From positions 19,092 to 83,091 of IMG/VR virus record IMGVR_UViG_3300033156_000141: a DNA stretch of 64,000 bases. One strand, written 5' to 3'. Positions within the stretch are counted from its first letter, which is position 1. Each line of letters opens with the position of its first letter. The notes beneath the pieces were generated by a model. The model made no database searches, was not told the DNA's origin, and was given only the letters and a program-made list of their open reading frames with translations. Origin of the DNA: a virus. Lineage: Duplodnaviria > Heunggongvirae > Uroviricota > Caudoviricetes. This document shows, in pieces, positions 24,840-39,250 of this stretch. The position numbers and the translations under genes were made by a program.

Positions 24840-25178
24840 GTGAAAAATTCCTCAAATGGATACCAAAGTTTATTCAATCACAGATTCAGAGTGAATCTAA
24901 TGACATTCAATGAATTAAAGAGATTACTCAAGAAAGAGTTTAATGATGGTACAATAGAGGAAGATGATGGATCTCTAACAATTGATTACGGTTTCTACTA
25001 TATCAAAGTAAGTGACTGGGGATTCTTCTATCAGCTGGCAATAGAGACGGATATGGATCTTGAAGATTTGACTTTATTATACACTAAGTATCTTCCTCGT
25101 GATATACATAGAGCTTTTAATGTGATAAAATCACGTGTAGAGTTTATTAGAAGATTTCTATTGATGGAGAGTATCTAA
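24840..25178 (+). CDS. member of C-terminal-tail paralog family (ends ...RFLLMESI)
   Basis: ~100 aa; C-terminal helix + tail related to neighbouring paralogs. Confidence 0.45.
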   Translation: MKNSSNGYQSLFNHRFRVNLMTFNELKRLLKKEFNDGTIEEDDGSLTIDYGFYYIKVSDWGFFYQLAIETDMDLEDLTLLYTKYLPRDIHRAFNVIKSRVEFIRRFLLMESI

Positions 25179-25179
25179 C

Positions 25180-25629
25180 ATGCCTAGATACTTTGTAGTT
25201 ATTAGTGATAATAACCAAATCATATTCTTTAAGAACTCAAATTTTTCCAGAGGTGGTACATACAGAAGAACGTTTAGAGATCCAATGGGAGTTTTTCTTG
25301 ATTATCTTGATCTAGTGTCTAGATGGTATGCTTCTAAAATAAAGCATACGAGACAAGAGCTTGACAATCCATTCAATGATGATAGTGTAGTTGCAAGATG
25401 GAAATGTTATGAATCTACAAAGTCTGAATACGACATGTCTCAAAGCATAGGAATGATAGGCTCACACATAATAAGTAAGTGGTTGAGTAAGAATCCTAGA
25501 ACACCAGAATGTATAGAAGAAGTTCTATCTTTAATAGAATACTTACAACCATTTACTCTTATTAAACAAGATAGATTTGATGAACTAGAGAAACGTATAA
25601 ATGAATATCTCCTAAAGGAGAGAATATAG
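25180..25629 (+). CDS. member of C-terminal-tail paralog family (ends ...INEYLLKERI)
   Basis: C-terminal 35 aa is paralogous to that of 26483..26932 (IEYLQPFTLIKQDRFDELEKRINEYLLKERI vs LEYLQIFTLINEKRYTELTERIRRVILSKEI). Confidence 0.5.
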   Translation: MPRYFVVISDNNQIIFFKNSNFSRGGTYRRTFRDPMGVFLDYLDLVSRWYASKIKHTRQELDNPFNDDSVVARWKCYESTKSEYDMSQSIGMIGSHIISKWLSKNPRTPECIEEVLSLIEYLQPFTLIKQDRFDELEKRINEYLLKERI

Positions 25630-25630
25630 A

Positions 25631-25921
25631 GTGGAGATTGAAGAGATATCTAATAAGATTCTACGAAACTATGACTTTTCTAAAATAAAGAAGCTAAACA
25701 ATGGAGAATCTATAATTGATTTTGGTAAGTTCAGAGTAGAGATAATGGAAGGAGATAGATGGAGTCAGATAAGAGTAACGATACTTTCTAAAATCGAATT
25801 ATCTACTGAATGGACTCTCTATCTTACTCTAGAAACATCCAAGTCTGATCAGAACATCATGGAACAAATTTATGAAGCTATTGACTATATTCAGAAGGTC
25901 TTGTTAGCTAAGGAGATATAA
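25631..25921 (+). CDS. member of C-terminal-tail paralog family (ends ...QKVLLAKEI)
   Basis: 96 aa; tail motif. Confidence 0.5.
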   Translation: MEIEEISNKILRNYDFSKIKKLNNGESIIDFGKFRVEIMEGDRWSQIRVTILSKIELSTEWTLYLTLETSKSDQNIMEQIYEAIDYIQKVLLAKEI

Positions 25922-25924
25922 TAG

Positions 25925-26221
25925 ATGAGTCTACTAGATACTCTTGGCTCTTATCTTAGAAAGAAATACAATCCAAGTATCTATCATCGAAACAATCTCT
26001 TAGTGTTTCTAGATTTTGATAATTTCTATATTGAAATTAGACACTTTCAGGTTTCAAACATTATCTGGATAACGATTATTTACTCTAATACCAAGAATGA
26101 CTTCTATTCATCACTTGAGTGTAGAATTAGTGCTAATAAGTATACACCAGAAGAGATAGTATCTATTATTGAGTGTGAAGTAGAAAAGCTATTGTCTATA
26201 GTACTTACTAGAGAGATGTAG
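25925..26221 (+). CDS. member of C-terminal-tail paralog family (ends ...KLLSIVLTREM)
   Basis: 98 aa; divergent tail. Confidence 0.4.
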   Translation: MSLLDTLGSYLRKKYNPSIYHRNNLLVFLDFDNFYIEIRHFQVSNIIWITIIYSNTKNDFYSSLECRISANKYTPEEIVSIIECEVEKLLSIVLTREM

Positions 26222-26227
26222 TCTACT

Positions 26228-26479
26228 ATGTTGAAGTGTCCTTACTGTAACTCTATTATGCAATTTAACGATGAGTATGATCAGTATGAGTGTAGTAAAT
26301 GTGGATTAAGGCTAGGAAAGTATTTTGAGAAGAAGAACTCTGAACATGTAGGGTATATGCATTATATTGCTCTAAGAAGAGAATACGAGTGGATTCTCAA
26401 ACGTTTAAGGAAAATCGAGAAGATACTTAGTCTAGCTTCTGATGATATTAAACGAAAGGCACTAGCTGAGGAAATATAA
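26228..26479 (+). CDS. small zinc-ribbon protein (CPYCNS...CSKCGL)
   Basis: Two CxxC pairs. Confidence 0.45.
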   Translation: MLKCPYCNSIMQFNDEYDQYECSKCGLRLGKYFEKKNSEHVGYMHYIALRREYEWILKRLRKIEKILSLASDDIKRKALAEEI

Positions 26480-26482
26480 TAG

Positions 26483-37220: not shown

Positions 37221-37523
37221 GTGGATTATCTTGAGGAATATGCTTATCAGCTCTTTAAGCGTATAAAGGACAAGTATGATATTTACGATTATTATGAGTC
37301 AGATGATTACTATGAGTATGTAATGAGCAACGATAATTTGACTATTTCAGTTGTGTCTGATCTGTCTCATAGTGTTGGAGTTAGACTCATATTTCCTTGG
37401 AGAGAAGAAGATAATTCATTGATATCATTTGAAGTATATGGACAAAGTATTGATTATGTTGTAGAGTGGATAGATAAGGTATCCAAGATAATAAAACCTT
37501 TACTACTTGCTTCAAGATTATAA
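37221..37523 (+). CDS. member of C-terminal-tail paralog family (ends ...KPLLLASRL)
   Basis: Paralog of 37535..37834 (VVEWIDKVSKIIKPLLLASRL vs VVRWIDKVYEIAKPLLLSAKL). Confidence 0.5.
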   Translation: MDYLEEYAYQLFKRIKDKYDIYDYYESDDYYEYVMSNDNLTISVVSDLSHSVGVRLIFPWREEDNSLISFEVYGQSIDYVVEWIDKVSKIIKPLLLASRL

Positions 37524-37534
37524 ACAGATCTAAA

Positions 37535-37834
37535 ATGAATTACAGAAAATATGCTATAGAACTTTGGGTTCGTCTTAAGGATAAGTATAAGCTCTGGTTA
37601 ATGCGTGAGCTAGATAGACGTTCCATAATTGATTGTGTAGACATGTTGATCATAGTTGAAGGAGACAAAGAACATACAAAGAATATCAGAGTTTCATTCC
37701 CACTAAATGAAGAGGATCGGACTTGGATAATGTTTGAAATGCATGGAGAAGATAGAGATCTCGATCATGTTGTAAGATGGATAGATAAAGTGTACGAGAT
37801 AGCTAAACCACTATTATTATCAGCTAAACTGTAA
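37535..37834 (+). CDS. member of C-terminal-tail paralog family (ends ...KPLLLSAKL)
   Basis: Paralog of 37221..37523. Confidence 0.5.
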   Translation: MNYRKYAIELWVRLKDKYKLWLMRELDRRSIIDCVDMLIIVEGDKEHTKNIRVSFPLNEEDRTWIMFEMHGEDRDLDHVVRWIDKVYEIAKPLLLSAKL

Positions 37835-37855
37835 TCTAAGTATTGGTGACTGAAC

Positions 37856-38224
37856 ATGTACCAAGGTTATAAAATATACTTGTATTTTATTTGGTATTTG
37901 TTAAATAAGTACTATACTTCAATAAACAGAAAATTCAAACACATAGATTTGTCTGAAGTTAAGGAACGATTCAAGAATATAGATTGGTACGAAGTTAAAG
38001 AGAACCTGATTGCTTGTCTGATACTTCTAGCTATTCTTGGACAACTTTTTCTTGGACTTATTGGAATGATATCATATATAGAACCGATAGAGGATCTATC
38101 AGACACTTTTATTAAATTCTGTAGAATAGTTCAATATACATGGGTTATTTGGGTATTTATCTATATTTATATTGAATGGCAGGATTATAAAGATCATCTT
38201 AGAAGAATAGCTGAGAATTTGTAG
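37856..38224 (+). CDS. small membrane protein (122 aa)
   Basis: Hydrophobic helices LIACLILLAILGQLFLGLIGMI and WVIWVFIYIYI. Confidence 0.4.
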   Translation: MYQGYKIYLYFIWYLLNKYYTSINRKFKHIDLSEVKERFKNIDWYEVKENLIACLILLAILGQLFLGLIGMISYIEPIEDLSDTFIKFCRIVQYTWVIWVFIYIYIEWQDYKDHLRRIAENL

Positions 38225-38563
38225 GTGATATTTGTGACTAATCTTACTTTAGATGACTTATTAAATGATGAGAGAGTAATTGCTATTAAAGAATATTTAG
38301 ATGGAAAATTTGGCATAGATGAAGAGAAAATAGACAAAGATACTTTATTTATTAAGCTTCACAACTTGTACTTTGTTACTATATCGTACAATCCTATGGG
38401 TTTGATAAATGTAGGATTAGTGACACATTATTATGAAGCATCTTATTTAGGAGCTACATTTGTGTCTTTCTACACGATTCATTTTGATGTGAACTATTTC
38501 AAGAAATGGATAGACAAACACTTGAAAGTATTGGATTCGGTTCTAGTAGCTCAGAAGTTATAG
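38225..38563 (+). CDS. member of C-terminal-tail paralog family (ends ...SVLVAQKL)
   Basis: 112 aa, tail motif. Confidence 0.45.
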   Translation: MIFVTNLTLDDLLNDERVIAIKEYLDGKFGIDEEKIDKDTLFIKLHNLYFVTISYNPMGLINVGLVTHYYEASYLGATFVSFYTIHFDVNYFKKWIDKHLKVLDSVLVAQKL

Positions 38564-38574
38564 AGGGAGTACGT

Positions 38575-38946
38575 TTGACAGCTAAATACAAGATTGATTT
38601 AAACTTGGAAGATGATGAAAGCTATACAGCATTCGAACAAATAGTAAGACTATCATTCTACAATTCTATCAAGCAAATTCTACTATCTAAGTATCGAATC
38701 CAAGAAGAGATTCGTAGTAAAGACTTTAGTACTATTGAATTCTTCTTAGAGAATGGATGTTATGTATCAGTAATATTTTCTGGATTTACACCAAATAGAG
38801 TTTCAGTTATATCAGATATCAAACTTAGCAACAGAGATACATATATCACTATATCTACAAGTACAATAAACCTAACAGACTTGGACAAGTGGTTAGACGA
38901 ATCTATCAACATGTTGTCTTCAATAAAGTTATCTAGGGAGTTGTAA
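38575..38946 (+). CDS. member of C-terminal-tail paralog family (ends ...SSIKLSREL)
   Basis: Start likely TTG 38575 after SD GAGGGAG (the track start 38506 overlaps the previous gene). Confidence 0.4.
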   Translation: MTAKYKIDLNLEDDESYTAFEQIVRLSFYNSIKQILLSKYRIQEEIRSKDFSTIEFFLENGCYVSVIFSGFTPNRVSVISDIKLSNRDTYITISTSTINLTDLDKWLDESINMLSSIKLSREL

Positions 38947-38950
38947 GCTA

Positions 38951-39250
38951 ATGAGCATAAATATGCTAGCTAAGCTCGTAAATAAGCTTGTTAAAGAGAT
39001 AGATGAGTTCTATATTACAAGTTTTAGTGGTGAATGTATTATCAAGCTCATTAATAATGAGCATATAGTAATAAGAATCCACAATTGGAGAAATGCTTTT
39101 AATATCAGGATAGATGCTAAAGGAAATGTGTATATGGAAGATTCTTCACTTTCTGTATCATCTTTAATTAATGATGAAGAAAGAGCTAAACGGTGGATTC
39201 TATCTGTAATTGATCACATAAACAAAGTACTTTTAGCTGGTGAGATCTAG
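38951..39250 (+). CDS. member of C-terminal-tail paralog family (ends ...NKVLLAGEI)
   Basis: 99 aa, tail motif. Confidence 0.5.
   Translation: MSINMLAKLVNKLVKEIDEFYITSFSGECIIKLINNEHIVIRIHNWRNAFNIRIDAKGNVYMEDSSLSVSSLINDEERAKRWILSVIDHINKVLLAGEI

Follow-up and report, generated by a model that had tools for sequence, protein, structure and literature searches.

C-terminal docking and degradation (degron) motifs, such as the ssrA-type and other non-polar tails (ClpXP/FtsH), HbYX and PIP boxes, are short, lie at the extreme C-terminus of unrelated folds and have hydrophobic key residues in a fixed register to the carboxylate. In the hyperplastic regions of T4-type phages, small ORFan genes are shuffled via repeated regulatory cassettes (PeSLs); tandem accessory genes are gained, lost or replaced there, with breaks at the repeated regulatory junctions. 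Also described are Shine-Dalgarno (SD) sites that lie within the preceding gene (PMC2784483) and neighbouring genes that are translationally coupled (PMC6728339; see also PMC12548453); stop and start are then separated by 0-6 nucleotides (nt) or overlap, GGAG or GGTGA is found 5-10 nt before the start within the upstream coding sequence, and a bias to GAG and AGG codons is relaxed when the spacer is long. Features of all three are found in the locus described here, which lies in a 64,000-nt stretch of DNA from a tailed virus (positions 19,092 to 83,091 of IMG/VR record IMGVR_UViG_3300033156_000141), referred to below as the window. Thirteen open reading frames (ORFs) in three tandem arrays, together with the ORF 32877-33179, end in phi-L-L-[A/S]-x-[K/R/E]-[I/L]-COOH, where phi is a hydrophobic residue. 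Two layers are superimposed in this tail: an imprint of the SD site of the following gene, and a leucine-rich helix end that is selected at the protein level. Genes are named by their first coordinate and residues are counted back from the C-terminus, the last being -1.

All 12 ORFs that an earlier note on this DNA had named as carriers are present on the + strand with the C-termini it gave. The tail of gene 25925, absent from its list of tails, fits the pattern, and carriers beyond that note are genes 26228, 32877 and possibly 43586 (Table 1). The strict pattern proposed there (phi-phi-x-[KRQ]-[ERK]-[ILM]-COOH) is present at 5 of 117 C-termini, compared with 0.10 expected from its internal rate, and a looser pattern, devised post hoc with the tails already seen, at 12 of 117 compared with 0.72 expected; the carriers that enter these counts are not independent, being made up of family A (8 members), family B (2), family C (3) and the 32877 protein. 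The relatives used for comparison were a 108-kb IMG/VR relative (L001/L007/L010) and the short fragments L002-L004 and L008. From these, two start codons could be placed. The ORF at 24840 (GTG) most likely begins at ATG 24900, because the L001 orthologue keeps 'MTF(N/D)ELK' there and a zinc-finger ORF of 45 amino acids (aa) occupies 24776-24913; a start at 38575 (TTG) and not at 38506 also follows from the L001 orthologue. The gene of a 45-aa Cys-rich (CxxC) mini-protein comes immediately before the first family A gene, which it abuts or overlaps, in both arrays that begin with this family (24776-24913 and 37084-37221).

Homologues were sampled by word-indexed searches and by an exhaustive hidden Markov model (HMM) search of 1.8 billion representatives. 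The eight paralogues of family A have, from the AlphaFold2 (AF2) model of 38951, a frataxin/type III secretion system (T3SS) chaperone-like sandwich, which gave a structural match of the same topology to the T3SS-chaperone/YbjN/frataxin-like fold. They have no significant match in Pfam, PHROGs or PADLOC, and the exhaustive HMM search returned members of the virus clade only. Identity to alpha+beta two-layer sandwiches of this type (among them small inhibitors such as the TriTu immunity protein and T7 Gp1.2) is no more than 15%, and as the likeness is that of a common, generic fold, function cannot be transferred from it. Family B (25180 and 26483) consists of a small beta element and a helical bundle whose last helix spans residues 133-148 (mean predicted local distance difference test, pLDDT, 82.4); structural matches to this model were generic helical ones only. 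Neither A nor B has anything significant in Pfam, PHROGs, PADLOC or NCBIfam. In family C (26228, 61774 and 62174) a four-Cys zinc ribbon is followed by helices. The ribbon (CPxC...CxxC) is like that of the Lar-like restriction-alleviation proteins, but stays below the curated cutoffs (PF14354, 20.9 vs 28.6; TIGR03655, 25.3 vs 39.6; phrog_599 is matched by 62174). A sub-threshold Lar-like ribbon is all that was found for family C; the additional helical C-terminal half of about 50 aa, which bears the tail, is seen in this clade only. Outside about five related genomes (the contig of the window itself, the 108-kb relative and the fragments L002-L004 and L008) none of the carrier families was found, and all of them are new but ordinary viral dark matter, or ORFans. 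The long repetitive proteins P0015 and P0022 among the homologue-search matches were judged spurious, and homology of 43586 or 32877 to family A was rejected as not significant.

When the profile of family A was aligned with those of family B, family C and 32877, the tails alone aligned, end to end (P 0.023, 0.0019 and 0.11, respectively); B and C showed no similarity to each other. The view of the earlier note that the N-terminal domains are diverse is thereby borne out, with three architectures whose profile-profile likeness is confined to the tails, as is its view that the tail is not simply the end of one fold: there are at least three unrelated architectures, and no known domain accounts for the tail. 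Its idea of a transferable tail holds in part. Several architectures do carry it, but 8 of the 13 members are paralogues of one another, and in these eight the tail forms the final two turns of the fold's C-terminal helix.

Throughout this genome SD sites are visible as a G-rich block at -13 to -8 upstream of genes, with GGAGG or GGTGA. Within the arrays only 0-6 nt separate a stop from the next start codon, and the SD site must therefore sit inside the tail. The nucleotides of the tails are indeed SD-plus-stop strings of the AAGGAGATATAA type, for example ATG GAG AGT ATC TAA C ATG, AAG GAG ATA TAA TAG ATG, GGT GAG ATC TAG ATG and AGG GAG TTG TAA, with an SD-like purine block 5-10 nt ahead of the downstream start and within the upstream coding sequence. 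The effect on the protein was tallied over 32 family tails from the window, L001, L007, L002 and L008. Glutamate is present at -2 or -3 in 19 of the 20 tails whose next start is at most 6 nt away, compared with 3 of the 12 with a distance of at least 7 nt (Fisher 7e-5). Genes outside the families follow the same trend more weakly (10 of 29 vs 8 of 57), with tails such as EDEDE, SQEE, KVEEG and IMESVK. The coupled glutamate is encoded by GAG in 18 of 19 cases, compared with 44% GAG in gene bodies, and the rare arginine codon AGG (6%) is recruited to form AGGGAG. Where the spacing is loose, the tails take the form ..[A/S]-x-[K/R]-L (ASRL, SAKL, AQKL, ARRL).

Orthologues provide a natural experiment. 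The tail PLLLASRL, followed in the window by an 11-nt gap, has become PLLLASEV (AGT GAG GTG TGA) in L001, where the gap is 3 nt; VLVAQKL, again with an 11-nt gap, corresponds to YRLTKEL in L008, where there is no gap. In addition, one L001 tail is extended by two residues (..RELCR) where the next gene overlaps. This extension and the change from RL to EV argue against a strict C-terminal recognition code. From the dependence of glutamate on spacing, the bias in GAG and AGG codons and the orthologue pairs, it is clear that the '[KRQ]-[ERK]' half of the motif, which the earlier note had taken for part of a protein tag, is largely the ribosome-binding site of the next gene (AAGGAG, AGGGAG, GGTGAG). 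The SD site was rejected as the sole cause of the whole motif; 29 other coupled genes score at most 4.0 bits with a matrix made from the family A tails (see below), and the motif survives removal of the SD-coded columns. The locus thus differs from described cases of embedded SD sites in that frame and register of the SD are identical across 13-14 genes, where it overlies a leucine-rich helix end selected at the protein level, and in that SD alone does not give the tail in the other 29 coupled genes.

The hydrophobic half of the tail behaves as a property of the protein. Its leucine codons vary synonymously across orthologues and paralogues (CTA, TTG, CTC, TTA, CTT), and a DNA-level cause of the Leu-Leu pair was rejected because the codons are free to vary and no matching signal is seen at -25 to -15 upstream of other genes. 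In family A the hydrophobic columns are at -21, -18/-17, -13, -11/-10 and -7/-6/-5, and then at -1; leucine occupies -5 in 15 of 17 sequences and the last residue is aliphatic or methionine in all 17. By helical register, -7 and -6 prolong the core stripe of the C-terminal helix, with -5 and -1 on the adjacent face. The AF2 models place the family A tail within helix 76-98 and the family B tail at the end of helix 133-148, the last block of residues having a lower mean pLDDT (76 and 83), and inspection of the family B sequences shows the same hydrophobic spacing as in family A. The leucine at -5, the hydrophobic residues at -7 and -6 and the aliphatic last residue are selected at the protein level, as the synonymous variation of their codons shows.

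A position-specific scoring matrix (PSSM) built from the last 8 residues of family A only was scanned over the 16,763 positions of all non-A proteins, 0.65% of which are C-terminal. The true C-termini of 32877, 62174, 26483, 61774 and 26228 ranked 1, 3, 4, 11 and 19. From these ranks and those obtained without the SD-coded columns, given below, the sharing across families is real: a C-terminus-anchored [S/K/R]-phi-L-L-[A/S]-x-x-[I/L] is common to at least four unrelated families and is unexplained by SD. Rules based on hydrophobicity only give weak support for such sharing (P ~0.03-0.17). No comparable C-termini were found in the sampled regions (25 kb) of two more distant viruses, L005 and L006, both of which are without the carrier families there.

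Gene turnover in the arrays has its breakpoints at the junctions of tail and stop. Nucleotide homology between the window and L001 ends exactly at the stop of 25631-25921 and resumes near the start of 26483; between these breakpoints the window has an A and a C gene and L001 two A genes. Homology ends again at the stop of 38951-39250 (39250), past which L001 has two extra family A genes with repeated tail sequence on both flanks (TTAGCTGGTGAGATCTAG / CTAGCAGGTGAGATATAA). The 37221/37535 pair, furthermore, is missing from the corresponding place in L001. Recombination at the junctions is what these two comparisons, and only these two, would suggest. It would resemble the shuffling via PeSLs in T4-type phages, but the junction here is a string of about 10-18 nt, SD plus stop, inside coding sequence, and no promoter or stem-loop cassette.

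The reading that we favour, with a probability of roughly 0.5, combines a structural helix end, the SD imprint and a likeness spread by recombination of the arrays. The arrays would then be sets of lineage-specific, fast-turnover, small accessory (host-interaction) proteins in tightly coupled operons, and each carrier would end in an amphipathic alpha-helix whose last two turns bear a hydrophobic patch made up of phi(-7), L(-6), L(-5) and, at -1, an aliphatic residue. Selection on the protein would retain the patch for its place in the fold or in an oligomer interface, and the two or three residues between it and the last residue are encoded by the SD site of the next cistron, 5-10 nt before its start. 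In forcing [K/R/G]-E (AAG GAG, AGG GAG, GGT GAG), the SD site makes unrelated tails look more alike than their proteins. The remaining likeness across families would come from the evolution of the arrays, in which whole genes are gained, lost or replaced at stop/start junctions; a recruited gene may retain, or take over, the 3' end already in place there (helix end, SD and stop), by which expression of the next gene would be preserved.

Several observations weigh against this combination of causes. With the A-tail PSSM, all other C-termini, including those of the 29 SD-imprinted coupled genes, score at most 4.0 bits, compared with 7-13 for B, C and 32877, and without the two SD-coded columns the C-termini of 32877, 62174, 26483, 61774 and 43586 are still among the best 15, where C-termini occupy ranks 1, 3, 6, 10 and 15. 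Likeness of the tails across families at the codon level is limited to 14 of 15 nt between 24900 and 32877 and an SD string common to 25180 and 61774. Three hydrophobic residues in a row cannot share one helix face, so the patch may be partly exposed. A one-codon shift of the SD (KEI vs KERI) leaves L(-5) and phi(-1) at the same distance from the C-terminus; K-E is retained as AAA GAA in L001 8891, where the next gene is 38 nt off and no SD is needed; and in 15 orthologue pairs the last 7 residues are the most conserved part, with 73% identity compared with 58% for the preceding 15 and 51% for the rest. The last three of these points, together with the retention of leucine through synonymous change and the anchoring of the motif at the C-terminus of at least three to four unrelated architectures, would be expected if the tail were a true C-terminal short linear motif by which unrelated proteins dock on, or are degraded by, one common machine. 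A proline also sets the tail apart in one A subfamily (KPLLLASRL), and the ATPase, DUF2201 and SPFH genes, which make up the candidate machine for such a motif, lie between the arrays; the alternative is a host protease or unfoldase. Against this, the tail matches none of the known docking or degron motifs, and it is predicted to be helical and continuous with the core stripe, where those motifs are disordered. Its last two residues co-vary with the nucleotide signal, following the needs of the SD (RL to EV, QKL to KEL), and an extension of 2 aa is tolerated. Furthermore, the one N4-type phage neighbourhood examined around a homologous ATPase is without such tails, and the families occur in about five related genomes only, all with the same gene order. 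A docking or degron function is the main rival of the favoured reading, and less probable than it.

A more specific form of that idea would have a new tail, phi-L-L-[A/S]-x-[K/R]-[L/I]-COOH, address proteins to a virus-encoded FtsH/HflKC-like split machine (ATPase 26964-28220, 28223-30508 and SPFH 30817-32356) in a virus that may infect DPANN (Woesearchaeota). An AAA+-like ATPase with a HExxH/VWA protein and an SPFH scaffold is an arrangement that we take to recall FtsH-HflK/C, and FtsH recognises non-polar C-terminal tails; as a whole, however, this proposal is improbable. Similarly unlikely is convergence or chance, in which C-terminal amphipathic helices of an AT-rich proteome would often end rich in Leu and Ile and the SD would add the rest. 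A rule of phi at -7, -6, -5 and -1 gives P = 0.17 for at least three families, and with non-hydrophobic residues at -3/-2 added only B and C qualify (about 0.14, a Poisson estimate); the hhalign probabilities of the tail alignments are low (2-14%) and the patterns were defined post hoc. In the PSSM scan, on the other hand, 3 of the best 4 and 4 of the best 11 matches are true C-termini of other families, as are 5 of the best 15 without the SD columns, while all other C-termini stay at or below 4.0 and the sampled regions of L005 and L006 hold nothing similar. The least probable explanation, which we consider very improbable, is that the tails are substrates of the neighbouring radical-SAM enzyme or enzymes, in a C-terminal modification like that of ribosomally synthesised and post-translationally modified peptides. 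Gene 36281 is indeed kept just upstream of array 2 in the window and in all sampled relatives (L001, L002 and L008). It has a Radical_SAM core (57 bits), but the SPASM domain assigned to it in the earlier note gave no match at E <= 0.01, it falls below every maturase cutoff, and its best NCBIfam match is viperin-like and sub-threshold (viperin_w_prok, 80 vs 180 bits). The second enzyme, 62508, was correctly recognised as NrdG-like (TIGR02495, 182.9 vs a cutoff of 131.15 bits), but not as a partner of the tail: the substrate of NrdG2 is NrdD, and the gene is missing beside the zinc-ribbon pair in L007, where a frameshifted third family C remnant stands instead (4334-4660; ..KCKKCG.. / ..ASDKFKSYLLGKDYEYY..). 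Carriers, moreover, are folded proteins of 90-150 aa and not leader-core peptides, their tails lack the Cys, Trp or Tyr pattern typical of radical-SAM cross-links, and array 1 and 32877 adjoin no radical-SAM gene. The post-translationally modified tail considered in the earlier note was accordingly rejected on the identity of the enzymes and the nature of the carriers.

Whichever of these is correct, the locus is a worked example of a nucleotide signal passing for a peptide motif, a trap for motif hunts in dense viral genomes; with the SD layer removed, the leucine-rich element anchored at the C-terminus that remains is a modest oddity. If the tail were a true docking or degron motif, it would name a client set for an AAA+/VWA pair that has homologues in hundreds of phage records and whose function, to our knowledge, is not known. 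If not, it would record how tandem arrays of accessory genes are rebuilt at stop/start junctions.

Table 1. Coordinates of the tail carriers, their neighbours and other marker genes in the window.
Coordinates	Strand	Feature	Comment
1689-3050		Large terminase	
24900..25178	+	Family A member, ~92 aa, tail FLLMESI	SD ATGGAGAG within tail; next start 1 nt past stop
25180..25629	+	Family B member, 149 aa, small beta element + helical bundle, tail YLLKERI	AF2 pLDDT 82, C-terminal helix 133-148
25631..25921	+	Family A member, 96 aa, tail VLLAKEI	
25925..26221	+	Family A member, 98 aa, tail IVLTREM	
26228..26479	+	Family C member, 83 aa, zinc ribbon + helix, tail KALAEEI	Variable part of array; L001 has family A genes only there
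26483..26932	+	Family B member, 149 aa, tail VILSKEI	Stop overlaps palindrome TAGTTACTATCT
26964..28220	+	P-loop/AAA+-like ATPase ('MoxR' of the earlier note)	Probable start ATG 26964
28223..30508	+	DUF2201 protein (HExxH putative metallopeptidase + VWA-like domains)	Intein-interrupted
32877..33179	+	All-helical fourth protein, 100 aa, tail LLLMFEL	L001 orthologue ends LLLMLKL
36281..37087	+	Radical-SAM protein	Upstream of array 2
37221..37523	+	Family A member, 100 aa, tail PLLLASRL	
37535..37834	+	Family A member, 99 aa, tail PLLLSAKL	SD of next gene in 21-nt spacer
38225..38563	+	Family A member, 109-112 aa, tail VLVAQKL	
38575..38946	+	Family A member, 123 aa from TTG 38575, tail IKLSREL	
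38951..39250	+	Family A member, 99 aa, tail VLLAGEI	Modelled: alpha-beta5-alpha, pLDDT 82.6
43586..43987	+	Possible further carrier, 133 aa, tail VLLPLDL	
53326-55209		Archaeal-type RadA (helix-hairpin-helix + Rad51 domain)	Intein-interrupted
59059-61632		Family-B DNA polymerase	
61774..62172	+	Family C member, 132 aa, zinc ribbon + helices, tail ILLKERL	
62174..62506	+	Family C member, 110 aa, Lar-like zinc ribbon, tail YLLAKRL	phrog_599, E 4e-7
62508..63209	+	NrdG2, activase of anaerobic ribonucleotide reductase	

A link of the tail to the AAA+/VWA pair or to the radical-SAM genes, as had been suggested from their proximity, is not supported; for the former, the tail-less N4-type neighbourhood mentioned above bears on the claim. 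The ATPase has recognisable Walker A and B sequences (GAIGIGKS and IIFADEL) and lies directly upstream of the VWA-bearing DUF2201 gene. Its only Pfam match is AAA_16, at 18.7 bits compared with a cutoff of 32.6; there is none in NCBIfam, nor a sequence match in the PDB, and a homologue from an N4-type phage, 25% identical, is annotated 'MoxR ATPase'. The MoxR label given earlier to this gene therefore rests on gene order and the annotation of another record, not on a profile match. The DUF2201 gene is clear, with DUF2201_N at 117.1 and DUF2201 at 62.3 bits, both above the Pfam gathering scores, and HEVMH present.

The DUF2201 intein is absent from the L001 orthologue (422 aa). Within it, and in a different frame, lies the ORF 29187-29870, which encodes 227 aa with a LAGLIDADG-like motif (Pfam E 9e-4, sub-cutoff) and starts at an ATG of its own, 10 nt downstream of a TAGTAACTA motif; the host frame is nevertheless open across all 684 nt and is of low complexity. 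The insert has the look of a mini-intein in which an out-of-frame homing-endonuclease gene is nested. The SPFH/Band-7 gene is split in the window (30817-31086 and 31739-32356) by an insert of about 620 bp (~31070-31690) and is intact in L001 (13168-14115, 315 aa). The insert holds an ORF, 31119-31652, with a helix-turn-helix, a zinc finger and a sub-threshold VRR-NUC-like nuclease, and its N-terminal helix-turn-helix resembles that of the ORF nested in the intein. It gave no Rfam intron match, and could be an intron, another mobile insertion or a sign of a disrupted gene. With the RadA intein, the DUF2201 intein and the SPFH insert, there are at least three mobile insertions in 64 kb.

The best matches of the radical-SAM protein 36281 are models of prokaryotic viperins, over the N-terminal core only (PADLOC pVip, E 5e-25, besides the NCBIfam model scored above). 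Just upstream of its gene is a local set of paralogues (34900-35208, 35205-35768 and 35755-36294) that overlap by 4-14 nt. Both 35205 and 35755 begin MIHPNCSELVV (28% identity, E 2e-14) and 34900 is weakly related; none has a Pfam match.

The window has a G+C content of 34%, with nearly all genes on the + strand, and besides the marker genes in Table 1 encodes ParB, an RNA ligase and NrdG. It comes from a novel, uncharacterised tailed virus whose genome is about 110 kb long and whose replication genes are of archaeal type. The region has no Megablast match among GenBank phages, and zero tRNAs and zero Rfam families were found in the window. Related loci, sought via the ATPase, NrdG, the family-B DNA polymerase and family C, were limited to the 108-kb relative and the two distant viruses L005 and L006. 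A 3.5-kb fragment (L002/L009; contig CAYTYH010000064.1, GCA_964441965.1), about 94% identical to the region of the radical-SAM gene and array 2, is binned in a 'Candidatus Woesearchaeota archaeon' metagenome-assembled genome, and is a weak lead to a DPANN host for this virus clade.

The palindrome TAGTWACTA (extended form AGATAGTWACTATCT) occurs 46 times in the window, compared with 1.9 expected, for example at 6743, 7188, 10169, 22755, 24356, 26930, 39697 and 63207. Intergenic positions and stop codons account for 20 of the 46, against a non-coding share of only about 13% for the window. Several copies precede the leading gene of a cluster by 4-40 nt, some of them at the head or the end of a tail array, and the palindrome is a candidate promoter, operator or other protein-binding site.

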